A stretch of DNA of 62,033 nucleotides, taken from IMG/VR virus record IMGVR_UViG_3300043777_000073, positions 1 through 62,033 of that record. One strand, 5' to 3'. Of this stretch, positions 1-32,122 are shown piece by piece. Below the pieces are notes generated by a model, which saw only the letters and a program-made list of their open reading frames with translations, was not told where the DNA came from and did no database searches. The DNA comes from a virus. Taxonomy: Duplodnaviria > Caudoviricetes. Numbering within the stretch: the stretch's first letter is position 1; each line of letters starts with the position of its first letter. Position numbers and translations under genes: made by a program.

Positions 1-126
1 GGCGCCGCTCGCGCCGTGGGCGCCGCTCGCGCCGTGGGCGCCGCTCGCGCCGTGGGCGCCGCTCGCGCCGTGGGCGCCGCTCGCGCCGTGGGCGCCGCTC
101 GCGCCGTGGGCGCCGCTCGCGCCGTG
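1..126. repeat. 18-bp tandem repeat GGCGCCGCTCGCGCCGTG x7, truncated by the window edge
   Basis: Seven perfect copies; they encode (HGASGA)n in the methyltransferase frame. Confidence 0.95.
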
Positions 127-2055
127 GAGTTGGCCCGGTGCATCTCGATCGCGGCCAGTCAGTTCACTCCCGTCCACAAGGTCGAAACCATCAAGCCCGA
201 AGTCTCGTTCCCCGCGCGACGGCTTCGCGCAGAAGAAGAAGCGTGCAGCGCCTCCGACATCGCTGCGCGCAGTACCTGGCGAGTCGATGCCACCGAACAT
301 GCCGCCGCCATAATCTGCCCGATGCTCGCCGCCGCCGCTCATACCAGGACGGTCGCCAGATTGTTCGTTTAGGAGCTTGACAGGACAGCTTTCCACGCAA
401 GAGTAGACTTCGCCGACTTCGCCGCGCTTCGTCTGCGCGAGGCTGCCGCGCGTAAAGCCAATCGACTTGACCGGCTGATCGGGTGTGGCGCCTAGAATGG
501 GCCGCACACCGACAACCTCTCCAGTCTTGCGGCATCCGTCCGCATGGCTCAGTGCGATGTGAGCCGGCCAGCGGCCATTCGCCTGCGATTCGAGATACTC
601 CGGCAGCGAGCCAGCCGCGCGCTCGGTATGCAGACCAAAGTCGCCGATGCCGGCCCCGTGACTTGGGTGGCCCAGTCTTTGCGCCACCGCCGCCGCCGCC
701 GCCGCCGCCTTATCCTCTTCGCTGACGTAACCGATCCGGCACGCATCGATGTTGAGCGCGCCAGTTCCATGGCGCAAGACGTTCGCCGCTAGCGTCGGCT
801 CAGAGAGCGGCGCGCGCGCTAGCCACCAGTCCTCGCAGGCCGGCTTGAGCGCAGAGCCCCAGCCGTCCCAGGCCGCCGAGGCCGCCGAGGCCGCCGAGGT
901 AATGGCGTGCCCCGGTTCGCGCATGTCAAGTCCGTAAACATCCGTTTGCACACCGTTCGGACGTCTCGCGGCATATTGGCCTTGCCCGAGCACCGGCCGC
1001 TCATTCGCTTCCGCCAGTGCTTGATATTCACTTGCGAGCGTACCGACCGTGAATGAGATTAGGCTTGCCGCCATGAACTCCGTAGTAGTGGCACTCGTGG
1101 CAGAGGCATTGTCCGTTTCGTGTGTCATGCCTGAGTTCTGGATGTGTTCGGATCGGCTTGATGTGATGAGCTTCCAGTCTTCGAGTAGAGCCGCATATAG
1201 CGCATCGCTTGCCGCCGCCATCGATGACGGCTCGCTTCCAAGCCAGATCTTCAGGGCTGCGGCGCCCCTGAGTCTGTCCGGCGTGACGCCGCTTGGCAAG
1301 TCCAGAGCATCGTTGGGAGCAGTAGAAGTGTCCGTGCGGTCTGCCGCTGTGATTGTCGATGAGCCAACTTTTATATTTTTGACTGATTCTTCCGCATCCG
1401 TCGCATCTGCGCTCCACCATGTGGAAGGCTCGCTTGCATCCGGTGGAGCAGAACATTGCTCCGCTTCGCACGTGTGATGGGCTTCGGTTACCAACGGTCC
1501 CGCACTGGACGCATCGCACGGCAACTTTTCTGGATTGATTCGCTGCGCTGCACGCTCGCGAGCAGAACGGGCCGCGTCTAGCTGGTCCGCCGCAACGCCG
1601 GCACGCGCCGCGTATTCGCCAAACGCGCGGCAGAGCGCCGGTTGATCTACCTCGCGAACCCGCTGCTGCAACCGCACCCACTTGTCCCGCTCCTGTTTAT
1701 CTATATGCTTTGATATGTTAGCGCTTTTCGGAAACCCGCTCGCAAAAAAATGCGCCACTCGATCACGCACATCCCATCCCGCATTCTCGATGGCCATTGC
1801 GGTCCAGTGCGACGTCCTAGGCAGCGCCCACACGAGCGCGTGCGCGCCAGGCTTTGCGACGCGTCGCAACTCCACGAACACTTCGGCTAGCCACGCGATC
1901 CACTGATCGCGTCCGCCTTTATCCTTGTCCCATTCGGCATTCATGAAGGCGATGCCGCTCGGCGGATCGGTCACGATGGCGTCCACGCTCGCGGTGTCCA
2001 TCGTTCGCAGGACTTCGAGCGCGTCGCCGTGGTGGAGAGTCCAGCGAGCGGTCAT
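1..2055 (-). CDS. DNA methyltransferase (N4/N6 beta-class, phage type), 3' end runs off the window
   Basis: Not in the ORF track because it has no stop in the window. I read the frame by hand from ATG 2055 to base 1 and found no stop. It reads MTARWTLHHGDALEVLRTMDTASVDAIVTDPPSGIAFM...LRRVAKPGAH...SGFPKS...WDGWGSALKPACE...GTGALNIDACRI...GRWPAH...GGAARFFFCAKPSRGERD, blocks typical of this family. Motif IV is DPPS. Confidence 0.9.
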   Translation of the reverse strand, partial: MTARWTLHHGDALEVLRTMDTASVDAIVTDPPSGIAFMNAEWDKDKGGRDQWIAWLAEVFVELRRVAKPGAHALVWALPRTSHWTAMAIENAGWDVRDRVAHFFASGFPKSANISKHIDKQERDKWVRLQQRVREVDQPALCRAFGEYAARAGVAADQLDAARSARERAAQRINPEKLPCDASSAGPLVTEAHHTCEAEQCSAPPDASEPSTWWSADATDAEESVKNIKVGSSTITAADRTDTSTAPNDALDLPSGVTPDRLRGAAALKIWLGSEPSSMAAASDALYAALLEDWKLITSSRSEHIQNSGMTHETDNASATSATTTEFMAASLISFTVGTLASEYQALAEANERPVLGQGQYAARRPNGVQTDVYGLDMREPGHAITSAASAASAAWDGWGSALKPACEDWWLARAPLSEPTLAANVLRHGTGALNIDACRIGYVSEEDKAAAAAAAVAQRLGHPSHGAGIGDFGLHTERAAGSLPEYLESQANGRWPAHIALSHADGCRKTGEVVGVRPILGATPDQPVKSIGFTRGSLAQTKRGEVGEVYSCVESCPVKLLNEQSGDRPGMSGGGEHRADYGGGMFGGIDSPGTARSDVGGAARFFFCAKPSRGERDFGLDGFDLVDGSELTGRDRDAPGQLHGASGAHGASGAHGASGAHGASGAHGASGAHGASGAHGASGA
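1028..1681 (-). CDS. HNH endonuclease with N-terminal CxxC...FCSxxC zinc-finger repeats, nested in an alternative frame inside the methyltransferase gene
   Basis: CAICGSTRRLEAHHIKP...NGQCLCHECH HNH core and three FCS/YCS repeats. AGGAG lies 8 nt upstream of the GTG. Confidence 0.88.
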   Translation of the reverse strand: MGAVAAAGSRGRSTGALPRVWRIRGACRRCGGPARRGPFCSRACSAANQSRKVAVRCVQCGTVGNRSPSHVRSGAMFCSTGCKRAFHMVERRCDGCGRISQKYKSWLIDNHSGRPHGHFYCSQRCSGLAKRRHAGQTQGRRSPEDLAWKRAVIDGGGKRCAICGSTRRLEAHHIKPIRTHPELRHDTRNGQCLCHECHYYGVHGGKPNLIHGRYARK

Positions 2056-2444
2056 CCTTCGAAGTCCTCCGAGGGCTTGCCTGCGAGGAAGTGGTCCAGT
2101 GCGCGCTCGGCTTCGGTCGCCGCAGGCTCCGGGTGCGCTGCGGCCTCGCCGTCGAGCCCCATGCCGCCGCGCAGCAGGAGCAGCGCCCAGCCGCGACGGT
2201 GCTCGGCGCAGAGCGTCGACATGAGGGTGTCGAGGCGCTCGAGCGGGTCCAGCACCGGACGCATGGTCTGCTGGCAGAGCGCCACCATGCAAGCGGTCGC
2301 AATGGCCGGCTCGACCTCGCCTCGGCGCGCGAGCGCCGAGCAGTCGCAGATGACGCAGCGGCAGGTCACGGCGACACCTGGAGCGGGGGCGGCCCGAAAC
2401 GCTTGGGCAAGCGCACCACGCGAAGAGCCATCGTTGACCGGCAA
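2052..2444 (-). CDS. hypothetical protein (start uncertain)
   Basis: ORF whose stop overlaps the methyltransferase start (ATGA). Confidence 0.45.
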   Translation of the reverse strand: MPVNDGSSRGALAQAFRAAPAPGVAVTCRCVICDCSALARRGEVEPAIATACMVALCQQTMRPVLDPLERLDTLMSTLCAEHRRGWALLLLRGGMGLDGEAAAHPEPAATEAERALDHFLAGKPSEDFEG

Positions 2445-2556
2445 ACGCAGTTGCGAAGCTCGAGCCAGTTGAACGGGCCGTCTTGGTGCCAGCCGACGAA
2501 GCGAAGCGCGCGGTACTCGGCGACGGTGTACCGGCGGGAGCAGGAGCAGGGAACGC

Positions 2557-3024
2557 TCACGACGTGTGCTCCTTCACGAATCGACGGATGTGCTCGGCGA
2601 CCTCGTGCGCGGAGGCTTTCGCGAGCGGCCGGCCGGTATCCGCACAGGCCGTGCATTCTGACCCGTCCTCGTTGTAGTGGTCGCCGCGGCAGTCCGGGTC
2701 GTCTTGATCGCACGGCGTGAACAGGTACTCGGTTGCACCCTCCGAGAGGTCAAAGAGAAGCTCGGACGCGCGCACGTATGCGGCGTGGTACCTGAGGTCG
2801 GAGCCGATAGGGGCGGGCACGAAGGCGTTACTGATCGAGCGAATCTCGACGCCGCACTCCTTGCCCCAGAGCGCGGTCGCGTGCCCGAGCGCGCAGGCCG
2901 GCGCGCCGCATTCGGCGAGCGGTCTGCCGTCCCAGCTTGCGGCCACCCACGAGCGGAAGTTGAACCGCTTGGGCGGCAGCGTGTCCAGATGGTCGGCGAG
3001 GGCCAACAGGCGGGCGGCGTTCAT
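2557..3024 (-). CDS. hypothetical phage protein
   Basis: MNAARLLALADHLDTLPPKRFNFRSW...CGAPACALGHA; start overlaps the upstream stop. Confidence 0.65.
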   Translation of the reverse strand: MNAARLLALADHLDTLPPKRFNFRSWVAASWDGRPLAECGAPACALGHATALWGKECGVEIRSISNAFVPAPIGSDLRYHAAYVRASELLFDLSEGATEYLFTPCDQDDPDCRGDHYNEDGSECTACADTGRPLAKASAHEVAEHIRRFVKEHTS

Positions 3025-4148: not shown

Positions 4149-4367
4149 TTATCTTTCGGCCACTTTGACGTGTGGGACCTTGTAGCCGAGTCGTTCCGCG
4201 TAGGTCGAAAGCGCCTGGTAGTGCCAGCGGGATATCTCGACCTTGCCCTCAGACCAGCGCCACACAGTCGAGGCGGACACCCCGAGCGCTTTGCCGAGTT
4301 CCGTGACCCCACCCGCGGCCTTTGCGAGCTTTAGCCATGCCCCGGACAGCTTCGTCGTGCGATTCAT
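4149..4367 (-). CDS. Cro-like helix-turn-helix regulator
   Basis: GGVTELGKALGVSASTVWRWSEG HTH; ATG 4367 is coupled to the upstream stop. Confidence 0.8.
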   Translation of the reverse strand: MNRTTKLSGAWLKLAKAAGGVTELGKALGVSASTVWRWSEGKVEISRWHYQALSTYAERLGYKVPHVKVAER

Positions 4368-5476
4368 CGGATGGGCTCCTGGGTCATTTCGCCGTAGGCT
4401 TTGGGGAAGTCTCGCACGCACAAGTCCGCGGGCCACTCGGCCATGTTGCCGCCGTGGCCGTCGCGGAGCGGCATGATGACACCGCGCTCGCGGTCGCCTT
4501 GCGTCGGCCGGAAATCCTCGCCGCCAGCGCCAAGGGCGCAAGCGTAATCCTCGAATACGTCGTCGTCGCGCGCGTCATCGGTAAACACCGGCTGTCGGCC
4601 AAGTTGCTTGACGAATACACGCGCCGTTGCGGCGGCGGGATCCCGAGCCGCATCGAGCAGCTTGCGCGCCCAGGATACGTGGAATGGTCTCGCGTCGTGT
4701 CCACTCTCTCCGCCTACGATGACCCAGTCGAGCCCGCGCTCCCATGTGCCGCCAGCGCGCGCGATGTCTGGGCGGGGGTGCTGGAGTCGGTGTCCGTCCG
4801 TCGTGCGGAGCGTCCACTTGAGAAACGGCAAGAAGTCGACCGGGCCGAGCGCTGGCTCATAGCTCACGAATCGAACGGCGGCTGGCGAGGCCAGCAGAGC
4901 AGGTATCCGCTCGTCGGCATACTTTTGACTCTCGACGCTGACGCCGAGCCAAACGTTCGGGAGCGGCCACGGCATCTCGAAGCGCACCTTGTCGTGCCAG
5001 GCGTCGCCGTCTTGCATCATCTGACCGGCGAGCACAGCTAGCCGCTCGTGCATCTCCGTGCGGTTCGTGGCCATGTAGCGAGCGAGCCTGTCGGCGCGCT
5101 TGGTGAGAATCTGGAACGTGTGGCCGTAGTTCCGGTCGTGCATCGCGCACACGGCCATGACGGCGAACACGCGATCGATATCATGGTCCGCGAGGCCCTC
5201 GTGGAATAGGTCGCTCATGCTATTGACGAAGATGCGCCGACCGCGACGCCAGCGGATAGGGTCTAGCAGATGCGCCGGCACGAGCGCGACCTTGCGCGTC
5301 CAGCGCGGCCCGTGTTCCGTTCGCTCCGCGAAGCCATAGTATGGCAGGCCCGGCTTGGAGAATCGCGCGGCCTGCGACTCGGCGTAGCACGACTCGCAAC
5401 CCGGCGAGACGCGCGAGCAACCGCGAATCGGATTCCAGCTCGCGTCGGTCCACTGGATCTCGGACTTGGCGCCCAT
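4364..5476 (-). CDS. phage Gp37/Gp68 family (DUF5131) protein
   Basis: IQWTDASWNPIRGCSRVSPGCESCYAE, FVNSMSDLFHE, FQILTKR, NVWLGVSVE, RFVSYEP, DWVIVGGESG, FVKQLG. Confidence 0.93.
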   Translation of the reverse strand: MGAKSEIQWTDASWNPIRGCSRVSPGCESCYAESQAARFSKPGLPYYGFAERTEHGPRWTRKVALVPAHLLDPIRWRRGRRIFVNSMSDLFHEGLADHDIDRVFAVMAVCAMHDRNYGHTFQILTKRADRLARYMATNRTEMHERLAVLAGQMMQDGDAWHDKVRFEMPWPLPNVWLGVSVESQKYADERIPALLASPAAVRFVSYEPALGPVDFLPFLKWTLRTTDGHRLQHPRPDIARAGGTWERGLDWVIVGGESGHDARPFHVSWARKLLDAARDPAAATARVFVKQLGRQPVFTDDARDDDVFEDYACALGAGGEDFRPTQGDRERGVIMPLRDGHGGNMAEWPADLCVRDFPKAYGEMTQEPIR

Positions 5477-30919: not shown

Positions 30920-32122
30920 ATGAAGACCCTTCTGTCACTCACCAAGGACCGCGACGACGCTCTCAAGGCCGTGGCTTCGGCTACGAGCGCGGGTGCGCGC
31001 AAGAAGTCGCTTGCCTCGCTCGAGGCCGCGTCGCTCGCTCTGGCCAAGTTCCAGGCTCAGCTCGCATCCAAGGCGGCAGCTCGCAAGCCGGTCGCCGCCG
31101 TCGACGCCGACGAGGAGGATAGCGACGACGAGGAAGAGGAGAGCGAAGAGGAAGAAGAGGAGTCGACCGACTCATCGGACGACGAGCCCAAGAAGCCGAT
31201 GGAGAAGAAGTCCAAGAAGGCGAAGGCCAAGTCGAAAGACAAGGACGACGACTCCGACGACGATGACGGGGACGACGACGACGACGAAGACGAAGAGGAA
31301 GAAGACGAGGAGGAAGAGGACGACGAAGAGGAGACCTCCGACTCCGAGGACGACGACGAGGAGGAAGAGGACGAGGAGGACGACGAAGAGGAAGAGGAAG
31401 AGCGCGCCGCAAGCGCGTCGGCCCTCGCGTCCGCTCGCTCGGTGCTTTCGGCGGCCAAGAAGGCAAACGACCGCCGCGCCATCACCTCGGCCCGCGCCCA
31501 CTTCAAGTCCGTCAAGTCGGCCGTCGCCGCCATGAGCAAGACCTCGGCGCGCTACCACAAGCTCAAGGCCGTCTGCGCCGCTGTCACCGGCAAGAAGGGC
31601 CTGCAGAGCATCCTCGGCGGCATCCAGGGTCTCGCGGTCAAGGCCGCGCAGGAAGAGGCCAACACGCGCGACATCGCCAAGATGAAGGCGGCCTCGAAGG
31701 CCAAGCGCGTGAACGACATGCTCGCGCAAGCGGTCGCCGACGGCAAGATCACACAGAAGACCGTGCCCATCCTGCGCGACGGCATGACCAACACCAAGAC
31801 GCTGCGCGCGTACCTCGGCGCTCTGCCGAAGCTCGTGCGAAGCACCAAGGATCCCGAGCTTGTCGGGCGCACGCTTCGTGGCAGCACGGACGCAACGGCC
31901 GACAAGGACCGCCAGGAAATCCTCGACTTCCAGGCGCTCAGCCCCGACCTGCAGAAGTACGTCACGCAGGAAGCCGCTGCGCAGGGCAAATCGATCGACG
32001 ACTTCATGAAGTCGATGCAGGCCGTGTCGGCGAAGGCTGGCGGCGGCGTGTCTCCCATCGCGGTCAAGCGGGCCGAAGCGGACTTCATTCCCCACCGTTC
32101 GAACGGTGCAGCAGGTCAGTAA
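30920..32122 (+). CDS. putative capsid scaffolding protein with a long Asp/Glu tract
   Basis: Lies between protease and capsid genes; LAQAVADGKIT motif. Confidence 0.65.
   Translation: MKTLLSLTKDRDDALKAVASATSAGARKKSLASLEAASLALAKFQAQLASKAAARKPVAAVDADEEDSDDEEEESEEEEEESTDSSDDEPKKPMEKKSKKAKAKSKDKDDDSDDDDGDDDDDEDEEEEDEEEEDDEEETSDSEDDDEEEEDEEDDEEEEEERAASASALASARSVLSAAKKANDRRAITSARAHFKSVKSAVAAMSKTSARYHKLKAVCAAVTGKKGLQSILGGIQGLAVKAAQEEANTRDIAKMKAASKAKRVNDMLAQAVADGKITQKTVPILRDGMTNTKTLRAYLGALPKLVRSTKDPELVGRTLRGSTDATADKDRQEILDFQALSPDLQKYVTQEAAAQGKSIDDFMKSMQAVSAKAGGGVSPIAVKRAEADFIPHRSNGAAGQ

Follow-up and report, generated by a model that had tools for sequence, protein, structure and literature searches.

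In a 62,033-nucleotide stretch of a Caudoviricetes virus (IMG/VR record IMGVR_UViG_3300043777_000073, analysed in full and hereafter called the window), bases 1033-1722 are, with a probability that we put at roughly 0.8, a mobile homing-endonuclease cassette that is read through in the frame of the DNA methyltransferase gene around it, with the nuclease made separately. A first-pass annotation of the sequence had proposed a homing endonuclease that spares its host by overprinting, and this is now supported by the observed anatomy of the cassette, its invariance among relatives, the depletion of stop codons, lateral movement as a discrete unit, conflict between gene trees, alleles with an empty site and the absence of intron or intein signatures. 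Both proteins are probably made and the methylase is probably still active; where transcription starts and where the nuclease cuts, as given below, are predictions. Insertions of this kind have been published as the ShiLan domain (PMC11855218), and the one described here belongs to a second, widespread family outside the actinophages, with a different frame offset.

The methylase frame and the nested nuclease gene

The first-pass annotation had reported a methyltransferase frame without stops from 2055 to base 1, and the ORF list places its opening further upstream, the minus-strand frame being stop-free from 2292 to base 1 (764 codons), where it exits the window edge. The methylase starts with the ATG at 2055, which shares an ATGA with the stop codon of the upstream ORF, and the DNA methyltransferase frame (128..2055, minus strand; PF01555 family, 3' end missing) is continuous across the insert, as judged from the open frame, the ATGA junction, Pfam, PHROGs and alignment with relatives. 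Residues 24-112 of the long frame match Pfam N6_N4_Mtase with 31.4 bits, above the gathering cut-off of 26.7 and in the N-terminal part only, and PHROG DNA methyltransferase families match residues 4-120 and 413-506. A PHROGs search of ten neighbouring ORFs gave one match, to a family of unknown function.

Alignment with relatives divides the methylase into an N-terminal segment (1723..2055, minus strand) that ends at the GFPKS motif (1737..1723) and a segment 3' of the insert (128..1032, minus strand) that runs from SEYQALAEANER, the host counterpart of SKAIDKAAGAERE, through WDGWGSALKP (870..841) to ARFFFCAKPSRGER, with these downstream blocks still in frame. Motif IV reads DPPS (1968..1957) instead of DPPY and departs from the (D/N/S)PP(Y/F/W) pattern. 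The relatives L009, L010, L021, L171 and L136 have DPPA at the same place, and DPPS/DPPA appears to be a conserved subfamily variant of motif IV, empty alleles included. The window record ends in a repeat before motif I (the AdoMet-binding FxGxG, after the HPTVKP block), which is present in complete relatives. This repeat, a perfect 18-nt tandem array of 7.1 copies found by TRF at the contig end (1..127, no strand), is an assembly break outside the biology of the cassette: in the likely source run, the Logan contig stops at base 98 and the depth is 66 on a 45-nt unitig covering 83-127, versus 11.6. The openness of the frame to base 1 is therefore uninformative on the methylase 3' end.

On the same strand and in another frame lies an HNH endonuclease ORF of 217 aa (1028..1681, minus strand) with a GTG start, three CxxC...CxxxC zinc-ribbon modules and an HNH domain; methylase codon position 1 is HNH codon position 2, and the TGA stop of the HNH ORF spans methylase codons S-E. 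The ORF list, Pfam and PHROGs agree here with the first-pass annotation, which had also noted a ribosome-binding AGGAG; this lies at 1694..1690, 8 nt ahead of the GTG at 1681. Residues 160-198 (1204..1088) match Pfam HNH_2 (26.6, cut-off 21) and HNH (22.5, cut-off 21.4), and PHROGs agrees with Pfam. Across 20 HNH sequences, that of the window included, no Cys, His or Asn column varies; H172, H173, N189, H195, H198 and every Cys pair are among these. In the window protein the HNH part was modelled with low confidence (pLDDT 47-66), a Foldseek search of the HNH model against the PDB gave nothing at E<=0.001, and a profile search of PDB sequences with the HNH protein gave chance-level matches to zinc proteins only, so that the HNH assignment rests on Pfam, PHROGs and motifs.

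The inserted cassette, comprising leader and HNH gene, measures 690 nt or 230 methylase-frame codons (1033..1722, minus strand) and lies between GFPKS and WDGWGSALKP. Its borders follow from its length, composition and GC and from alignment with insertion-free homologs, an approach put forward in the first-pass annotation, in which the closest empty alleles, L171 and L136, are without bases 1033..1722. The length is divisible by three and there are zero stops in the methylase frame. Because the HNH ORF accounts for 654 nt, with a 5-nt overlap beyond the insert, only 41 nt of the 690 are non-ORF; these form an A+T-rich leader (1682..1722, minus strand), delimited by sequence and by comparison with relatives, that holds the AGGAG and is nearly identical in nucleotides to the start of the L006 leader. 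The methylase-frame reading of this leader, ANISKHIDKQERDK, mimics host residues beyond the insertion site (ANISKHIDKQE versus SKAIDKAAGAERE, or SEYQALAEANER in the window). Of the host blocks that the first-pass annotation had taken to flank a variable region, GFPKS and WDGWGSALKP stand, while its ISKHIDK block, as part of ANISKHIDKQE, belongs to the insert and not to the host gene. Its remarks on composition were accurate: S+T+A make up 37% of the insert's methylase-frame reading versus 25% of the flanks, and GC is 0.587 in the insert versus 0.648 in the methylase flanks of this phage of ~65% GC.

Conservation of the arrangement among relatives

We examined 92 loci with HNH relatives, comprising 22 full-length family members (L001, L004-L011 and L020-L032, the window not counted; GC 0.29-0.63, 18 distinct leaders) and 70 loci with only distant HNH genes. 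Other dual-frame cases, and in-frame stops in homologous insertions, had been named in the first-pass annotation as things to look for. In all family loci (22 of 22) the HNH ORF lies inside a GFPKS-bearing methylase frame at the same site and with the same +1 offset, and in none (0 of 22) does the insertion contain an in-frame stop; the enclosing frame is open for 286-823 codons, with 6 of 22 exiting the locus end. None of the 70 distant-HNH loci shows nesting (alternative frames of 8-96 codons, L081 being an artefact). The protein database holds 88 clusters (90% identity) with a methylase-frame reading of the insert and PF01555 in 86 of them, a census biased to open frames, since a broken frame would be annotated as a shorter protein. 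Carriers are non-actinobacterial viral contigs, MAGs and an E. coli phage, spanning 29-65% GC with the window; Escherichia phage BUCT618 is a cultured carrier, and in the E. coli phage GenBank annotates the methylase only.

The empty site reads YGSGFPKSLDVSKAIDKAAGAEREV, with a spacer of 14-85 aa, in 66 of the 73 measurable methylase loci, and the site in the cassette-free allele is GFPKS-LDVSKAIDKAAG. At the same place L096, L099, L100, L111 and L153 carry in-frame inserts of 70-90 aa, and the loop after GFPKS appears to be permissive. Unrelated HNH families are also nested in this methylase gene, namely in L131 (HNH_3 type, +1, GFPKS site), in L006 at a second site and in the ShiLan type. 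The second site lies near FFYCAKAS, with a nested HNH_3 ORF in L006 and a nested ORF of no recognised family in L005. This fits repeated independent origins in one methylase family: the present cassette at +1, ShiLan at +2 and the L131 HNH_3 gene at +1, plus L006/L005 at the second site.

Stop codons in the methylase frame

In the window alone, the open frame could be due to chance (P about 0.04-0.15), and the first-pass annotation was justified in its caution over high GC. Synonymous shuffling of the window HNH gene left the methylase frame stop-free in 4.4% of cases and resampling with window codon usage in 15%, and an open +1 frame was found in 8.5% (18 of 212) of the 218-codon windows of other window genes. 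The significance of the open frame comes instead from the relatives. A within-gene synonymous shuffle is a weak null, since the codons it redraws come from a gene already cleared of stop-prone ones, and codon-usage resampling was used instead, with the HNH protein kept and codons drawn by locus codon usage. The stop-free fraction under this null was 0.015 for L001, 0.007 for L004, 0.0003 for L006 and 0.0008 for L007, and in L005 and L008 it was 0 of 10000 resamplings. Overall, 3-8.5 methylase-frame stops are expected in relatives (P0 from 0.015 down to under 1e-4), and the third frame carries 7-25 stops. Stops are thus depleted relative to locus codon usage, the test for which the first-pass annotation had called, and the stop-free methylase frame is under measurable selection. 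By HNH codon position, differences rank 3 > 1 > 2, with methylase-frame amino-acid changes 1.1-2.2 times as numerous as HNH-frame changes; selection acts mainly on the HNH frame.

These results bear on whether the HNH insertion inactivated the methylase and left a frame open by chance over a dead gene, as could happen in DNA of 60-65% GC that is poor in stops. The window frequencies of 4.4%, 15% and 18/212, the DPPS form of motif IV and a methylase 3' end outside the record would all agree with such a history. We nevertheless consider it very unlikely, since the relatives are stop-free without exception down to 29% GC despite the stops expected there, the insert is a multiple of three with downstream methylase blocks in frame, and DPPA/DPPS is common to the whole subfamily including empty alleles.

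Mobility of the cassette

Close pairs of family loci share a cassette of ~720 nt at 92-97% identity, compared with ~61-70% in the methylase flanks. Nucleotide differences in cassette versus flank were 47/606 versus 334/912 for L004/L022, 30/603 versus 437/1128 for L001/L024 and 19/603 versus 348/1155 for L029/L031, with identity in these relatives changing sharply at both cassette ends, which fall on the GFPKS codons and the HNH stop. In 186 of 190 pairs, identity is higher for the HNH than for the methylase. The tree of the HNH sequences disagrees with that of the methylases: in AU tests, a clade taken from either tree was rejected by the data behind the other (p 2.6e-4 and 8e-6, for groups chosen after the trees were seen). 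On the methylase tree of 83 rows, 10 changes are needed to account for the insert, of which starred branches force at least 5; empty-site alleles are interspersed among carriers, and the window methylase groups (99) with insert-bearing L009 and with the empty L136 and L171. The cassette is also found in methylase alleles only ~50% identical, in both the DPPY and the DPPA subfamilies. For the family, these comparisons show that the cassette moves laterally as a discrete, sharply bounded unit. The window HNH copy is on a long branch and may be old and divergent, possibly a resident that is no longer mobile. A megablast search with the BUCT618 methylase gene found only itself among phages and nothing in E. 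coli genomes, and so yielded no near-identical empty allele.

The first-pass annotation had offered a compact nuclease-methylase pair as another possibility. The HNH protein would attack unmarked DNA or competing phages and the methylase would protect its own, the two forming a restriction-modification or exclusion module kept compact by overprinting. Such a module would agree with an HNH family that was never seen free-standing, the 22 relatives and the window copy all lying inside this methylase family, and with a methylase frame that is kept open, so that the methylase evidently matters. However, the target-site specificity of homing accounts equally well for the association, and the cassette moves between alleles so dissimilar and across both subfamilies. 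Close relatives of carrier methylases are without it, which one would not expect of a co-adapted pair. The nesting of unrelated HNH families in the same gene (L131, L006 and the ShiLan type) likewise argues against it. A functional pair is thus less favoured than a homing endonuclease, and we regard it as unlikely.

Search for splicing signatures

Homing HNH genes usually reside in group I introns, which lends some appeal to an unrecognised self-splicing element, either a degenerate group I or II intron or a non-canonical intein, with an open frame that would be incidental or needed by an intein only. In addition, the first residues of the insert resemble those past the site, a feature that the ShiLan authors liken to intron guide pairing (PMC11855218, section 3.1). 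An Rfam scan of bases 1-3000 at E<=10 found no Intron_gpI or Intron_gpII family and three chance-level matches only (two miRNA families and radC), and the 41 nt outside the ORF leave no room for a ribozyme core. The RNA around the HNH start folds no more stably than shuffles (z 0.51), and an intron would give no reason for open host frames in 22 of 22 relatives. At the protein level, Pfam matches on the 685-aa read-through were limited to PF01555 and a collagen match on the end repeat, with no Hint or intein domain, in line with the first-pass annotation, which had seen neither intein termini nor an obvious intron. An AlphaFold2 model of the L004 methylase with its insert has a core of pLDDT above 90 and a disordered middle of the insert (residues 146-256, below 35), flanked by helices of pLDDT 60-79. 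Contigs from four sequencing runs contain no joint across the insert, which only the likely source run covers, and no RNA run turned up among the runs that match the window. The same negative result was obtained for the analogous element (PMC11855218, sections 3.1, 3.2 and 3.5), and we judge a self-splicing element to be highly improbable.

Expression of the nuclease

The leader is exactly 98 nt long in 19 of 22 family loci, and 13 of the 18 distinct leaders score at least 9/12 for a sigma-70 promoter in the same register, that of L005 (TTGACA-16-TATAAT-6-ATG) matching the consensus at 12/12; BUCT618 has a weaker one (7/12). In most relatives the position of the predicted promoter would put the first transcribed base at the A of the HNH ATG, so that the mRNA would be leaderless. 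The window copy is without the relatives' promoter and ATG, and its HNH protein has a 19-codon N-terminal extension from the GTG at 1681, behind the AGGAG Shine-Dalgarno. It has lost the promoter and probably uses the SD-GTG instead.

We also considered a programmed -1 ribosomal frameshift, by which the nuclease would be made as a fusion with the methylase N-terminal domain. Relative to the methylase, the HNH gene lies in the -1 frame, and -1 is the commonest direction of programmed frameshifts. This fusion was rejected on account of HNH-frame stops just upstream of the ATG in relatives; in L001, L007 and L008 the stop falls one codon before the conserved ATG, with no room for a slippery site. 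Given further that the ATG and the promoter ahead of it are conserved in relatives and that the window has its own SD-GTG, the probability of a frameshift is close to negligible.

Comparison with known systems

The HNH homing endonuclease I-HmuI of phage SPO1 is encoded in an intron, and a group I ribozyme removes the insert from the mRNA. The present cassette resembles it as an HNH homing enzyme that would spread through cleavage of empty alleles in a phage gene while host function is preserved, but no ribozyme was found here and the insert would be translated within the host protein. Free-standing homing endonuclease genes can also split phage genes, as mobE does in nrdA of Aeromonas phage Aeh1. 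That case likewise involves a homing endonuclease gene without intron or intein in a conserved phage gene that retains its function, but with two separate polypeptides instead of the single continuous frame seen here.

The closest known system is the ShiLan domain, an out-of-frame HNH insertion in mycobacteriophage and actinophage methylases (Arsenault, Gosselin and Gogarten 2025, PMC11855218). A ShiLan-type element also appears to be the subject of an earlier paper from 2023 (PMC9957025) and is annotated in StellaBean, Applejack and Molly, the second of which has an announcement of its own (PMC12613952). Like the ShiLan domain, the window cassette is a stop-free insert in a gene of the PF01555 family, placed directly after SGFPKS, with a nested zinc-finger and HNH protein of about 200 aa on the same strand in another frame, first residues that resemble the host sequence past the site, no sign of an intron or intein and a predicted loop; the disjunct distribution and lateral spread are found for the family. 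The two are nonetheless different cassette families. BLASTP gives 31% identity over 93 aa (E 4e-4), tblastn gave no match at 1e-5, and the methylase frame is +1 of HNH here versus +2 in ShiLan, so that the identity and the offset rule out the window cassette as a ShiLan domain proper. The present family also occurs in non-actinobacterial viral contigs, MAGs and an E. coli phage. For ShiLan, no RBS was found and leaderless initiation was proposed without a promoter (PMC11855218), whereas relatives in the present family carry a consensus sigma-70 promoter set for leaderless mRNA. An internal promoter with a leaderless mRNA would be a concrete answer to the published open question of how hidden nucleases are expressed.

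Two further systems share parts of this arrangement. The insertion in the methylase gp60 of Pacc40 holds a hidden HNH-like ORF (PMC11855218, section 3.6), and is thus again an out-of-frame nuclease-like ORF in a methylase gene with an open frame, but the methylase family, site and nuclease are different, and the Pacc40 nuclease has free-standing relatives beside uninvaded methylases, of which there are none in the 22 loci (22/22) studied here. Actinophage inteins with out-of-frame or antisense endonuclease genes are described in a preprint (bioRxiv 10.1101/2025.01.02.630785); the endonuclease there is likewise encoded out of frame within DNA whose host-frame reading is translated too, but the host-frame reading there self-splices, and the present insert has no splicing domain.

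Implications for homing endonuclease genes

Taken together, the cassette would sit in the loop after GFPKS of a phage beta-class (PF01555) DNA methyltransferase, where methylase ribosomes would traverse it and add about 230 partly disordered residues to a surface loop. Because the cassette has a length divisible by three and is free of methylase-frame stops, neither the RNA nor the protein has to be spliced. The nuclease would be made separately, from an internal sigma-70 promoter in most relatives and from the SD-GTG in the window. It would then cut methylase alleles that have no cassette, close to GFPKS, and the cut allele would gain the cassette when repaired from a genome that bears it.

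To our knowledge, homing endonuclease genes are thought to persist inside genes only via self-splicing introns, inteins or gene splitting. A translated-through, out-of-frame cassette would be a different solution, recognised only in 2023-2025 and only in actinophages, and the window with its 22 relatives shows that it is widespread, from contigs and MAGs of 29-65% GC to an E. coli phage. We see the chances as evenly balanced that stop-free overprinting has evolved as a third general means, next to introns and inteins, of placing homing endonuclease genes inside essential or useful genes, with the cassette as a self-contained expression unit. Its internal consensus promoter would then start the leaderless nuclease mRNA precisely at the ATG, and ribosomes on the host mRNA would turn the same DNA, in another frame, into a harmless loop. 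Gene callers overlook such nucleases, and methylase annotations include about 230 meaningless residues. The loop itself may serve as a natural permissive site for engineering.

Nested HNH gene and its host methylase

On the minus strand, the ORF listing contains one frame without a stop from 2292 to base 1, in which the methylase likely starts at ATG 2055; this codon and the preceding ORF's stop overlap as ATGA. The 685-aa read-through protein matches N6_N4_Mtase (PF01555) at residues 24-112 (31.4 bits, Pfam cut-off 26.7), and PHROGs DNA-methyltransferase families match residues 4-120 and 413-506. On the same strand, one base out of register, lies a 217-aa ORF (1681..1028, GTG start), with an AGGAG (1694..1690, minus strand) 8 nt upstream of its GTG. 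Pfam HNH_2 and HNH are both over cut-off, seven of the eight matching PHROG families are annotated as HNH endonuclease, and three zinc-ribbon modules (CxxC...CxxxC) precede the HNH domain. Given the ORF position, ribosome-binding site and HNH matches, the first-pass annotation was therefore correct in describing an HNH gene nested in another frame of an open methylase ORF. Searches against PDB found no structural neighbours of the predicted HNH model. Motif IV of the methylase reads DPPS, not DPPY (1957-1968). The window and relative loci L009, L010, L021, L136 and L171 form a subfamily of putative enzymes whose motif is DPPS or DPPA where the catalytic form is DPPY; the variant is conserved in insert carriers and empty alleles alike.

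The claim that this frame is open to base 1 held in that no stop interrupts it, but the 3′ end of the gene is lost. The window record, a linear viral contig (62,033 nt, completeness estimate 69%), has at its end (bases 1-127) a perfect tandem repeat with an 18-nt unit in 7.1 copies, which the methylase frame reads as GAHGAS. In the likely source run, the Logan contig ends within this repeat, at base 98, and depth is ~6-fold for a 45-nt unitig in the repeat; 1-127 is therefore an assembly break. Because the record and contig break off there, the methylase 3′ end (HPTVKP block, motif I) is absent from the data. For the window copy, whose methylase gene is seen only up to this repeat, we infer the functions of both products. 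Two further repeats occur in the window: a 9-nt repeat (870-899, 3.3 copies) encoding SAASAASAA directly before WDGWGSALKP of the methylase, and a long GAC/GAG-rich region with periods of 3, 12, 15 and 21 (31102-31402) that is presumably an acidic low-complexity protein stretch. Among ten neighbouring ORFs, the sole PHROG match is at 4364-5476 on the minus strand (phrog_2045, function not annotated, E 4.9e-82).

An open frame beyond chance among relatives

When synonymous codons of the window HNH gene were shuffled, the methylase frame was stop-free in 4.4% of 20,000 trials; resampling codons by window usage gave 15%, and the +1 frame was open in 18 of 212 (8.5%) 218-codon windows from other window genes. 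These values justify the earlier caution that high GC favours long open frames: in the window alone, the open methylase frame is not beyond chance. That it exceeds chance follows from the relatives. By tblastn against phage records, the same HNH was located at 57.5% identity in Escherichia phage BUCT618 (L001), under a gene annotated as methyltransferase only. That gene (OM735461.1 36396-38258) is a 620-aa methyltransferase in GenBank, where the nested 201-aa HNH ORF (L001 3390-3995) has no annotation. Further relatives came from pattern scans of IMG/VR and GTDB genomes, and full-length members of the HNH family were present in 22 of the 92 loci examined (locus GC 0.29-0.63); these carriers, some of them near-duplicate contigs, hold 18 distinct leader sequences. 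Each of the 22 has its HNH ORF inside a +1 frame that bears the GFPKS motif and stays open for 286-823 codons (6/22 run off the locus end). No comparable nesting was found in the other 70 loci, where all HNH genes are distant relatives; there, alternative frames on the same strand reach 8-96 codons at most (the match in L081 is split).

With the HNH protein held fixed and codons drawn from each locus's own usage, the probability of no stop in the methylase frame was 0.015 for L001, 0.007 for L004, 0.0003 for L006 and 0.0008 for L007, while L005 and L008 each gave 0/10,000 stop-free resamples. The third frame has 7-25 stops across the HNH genes. In a collection of 5.8 billion proteins, a census biased in favour of open frames found 88 clusters with the methylase-frame reading of the insert (PF01555 in 86), named methylase or hypothetical at source.

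Insertion site

Searching with the C-terminal part brought in 80 additional methylase loci. GFPK-ALKP spacing is 14-85 residues in 66 of the 73 loci where both flanking motifs were found, and these 66 show the empty site YGSGFPKSLDVSKAIDKAAGAEREV. The closest methylases to the window, grouped with support 99, are L009, with insert, and the empty L136 and L171 (L171 50% identical). Alignment with these three places the insert at 1722..1033 on the minus strand (690 nt, 230 codons), directly after GFPKS (1737..1723). At its end, the HNH stop codon spans the S-E codons of SEYQALAEANER, the window version of SKAIDKAAGAERE. In the methylase frame, the first ~10 insert residues mimic host residues downstream of the site; ANISKHIDKQE, initially read as a host-gene block, belongs to the insert instead. 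At the same loop, after SKAIDK, five loci (L096, L099, L100, L111 and L153) have in-frame inserts of 70-90 residues that resemble, by eye, a helix-turn-helix module. Such inserts show that the loop is naturally permissive of extra domains.

Mobility, and no sign of an intron or intein

Between close pairs of carriers, nucleotide differences in the HNH gene against the methylase flanks were 47/606 vs 334/912 (L004/L022), 30/603 vs 437/1128 (L001/L024) and 19/603 vs 348/1155 (L029/L031). Sliding identity rises at the GFPKS codons and falls at the HNH stop, and the mobile unit is therefore ~720 nt. In 186 of 190 pairs, identity was higher for the HNH than for the methylase (means 64% vs 48%). For groups chosen after the trees were seen, AU tests rejected the HNH clade {L021, L020, L024, L001} with methylase data (p 2.6e-4) and the methylase clade {L021, L010, L009, window} with HNH data (p 8e-6). 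On a methylase tree with 20 insert-bearing and 63 empty rows (83 in total, excluding the partial or duplicate L011, L023, L030 and L128), the insert requires 10 changes, at least five of them forced by well-supported branches, against a shuffled mean of 18.1. The insert has a lower GC than its flanks in 22 of 23 rows (21/21 once two near-duplicate contigs are removed, except L021) and nonetheless tracks flank GC (0.32-0.59), which points to repeated cassette transfer followed by amelioration. The window copy, the most divergent (best identity 60%, long branch) and the most GC-rich, is probably an old resident.

No Rfam intron family matched the methylase/insert locus (1-3000), even at E<=10, and only 41 nt of the insert lie outside the ORF; an intron is very unlikely on both grounds. 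An intein is likewise very unlikely, as Pfam found no intein domain in the 685-aa protein. Together with the 22/22 relatives and the mobility data, these results support the initial interpretation of a homing endonuclease that is overprinted, not spliced.

Selection on the two readings

Differences in the overlap rank 3 > 1 > 2 by HNH codon position, and amino-acid changes in the methylase frame are 1.1-2.2 times those in the HNH frame (HNH vs methylase 13 vs 23 for L001/L024, 38 vs 73 for L021/L001). By these counts, the HNH protein is the conserved product and the methylase-frame peptide mostly drifts, with absence of stops as its single hard rule. When the insert-bearing L004 methylase was modelled with AlphaFold2 (alignment of 57 sequences, 11 rows covering the insert), the prediction had a methylase core at pLDDT >90, insert residues 146-256 at <35 and flanking helices at 60-79. 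It resembles the insert model published for ShiLan, an out-of-frame HNH domain in mycobacteriophage methylases (Arsenault et al. 2025, PMC11855218, section 4.1).

Possible expression route of the nuclease

In 19 of 22 relatives, exactly 98 nt separate GFPKS from the HNH ATG, and this leader ends in TTGACA-N16-TATAAT-N6-ATG. The promoter scan gave 12/12 consensus matches in the L005 leader; in the fixed register, 13 of 18 distinct leaders have at least 9/12, and four are perfect. A sigma-70 promoter whose -10 hexamer lies six bases before an ATG has its transcription start at the A of that ATG. Judging from this spacing, an internal sigma-70 promoter may yield a leaderless HNH mRNA, whereby ribosomes would use the methylase frame on the full-length mRNA and the HNH frame on the internal transcript, starting at its 5′-terminal AUG. 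Such a transcript would explain how both same-strand frames are read. The stop found one codon ahead of the ATG in three relatives makes a methylase-HNH fusion by -1 frameshift unlikely. The window has GTT where relatives have the HNH ATG, and the scan found no promoter-like site in 900-2400; its HNH frame extends 19 codons upstream to GTG 1681, behind AGGAG. For ShiLan, section 4.3 of PMC11855218 leaves expression open, proposing leaderless initiation and naming no promoter.

Relation to known elements

Full-text searches found the out-of-frame phenomenon in actinobacteriophages only: the ShiLan domain (PMC9957025, PMC11855218), the Applejack genome announcement (PMC12613952) and inteins with out-of-frame endonucleases, described in a preprint (10.1101/2025.01.02.630785). 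In GenBank, the nested HNH is annotated for StellaBean, Applejack and Molly. The window cassette and ShiLan share host family, exact site, read-through logic and the mimic at the insert start (for ShiLan, PMC11855218, section 3.1). Their HNH proteins are distant (E 4e-4, 31% over 93 aa) and the frame offset is +1 in the window cassette vs +2 in ShiLan; unlike ShiLan, the window's family occurs outside actinophages and brings a promoter. In these searches we found no paper on this family; the supplements and repository of PMC11855218 mention similar elements 'in other phages and prokaryotes'.

L131 has yet another nested nuclease at the GFPKS site, of a third kind: a 175-aa HNH_3 ORF (1998-2522, E 2.2e-11) in the +1 frame. 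The methylase frame around it is open, and the spacer there is 192 aa. In the methylase genes of L006 and L005, a second insert, flanked by ASRFF(Y)CAKAS and HPTVKP, has a nested ORF in +2 of the methylase frame: in L006 (4270-4695) an HNH_3 ORF (E 1.7e-18) across which the methylase frame is open throughout, and in L005 (4177-4626) a zinc-finger ORF with CxxC pairs, an HNH-like end and no Pfam match.

The kind of element is already known, and the cassette here is a distinct family with broad distribution, one that offers a testable expression mechanism for a hidden nuclease.
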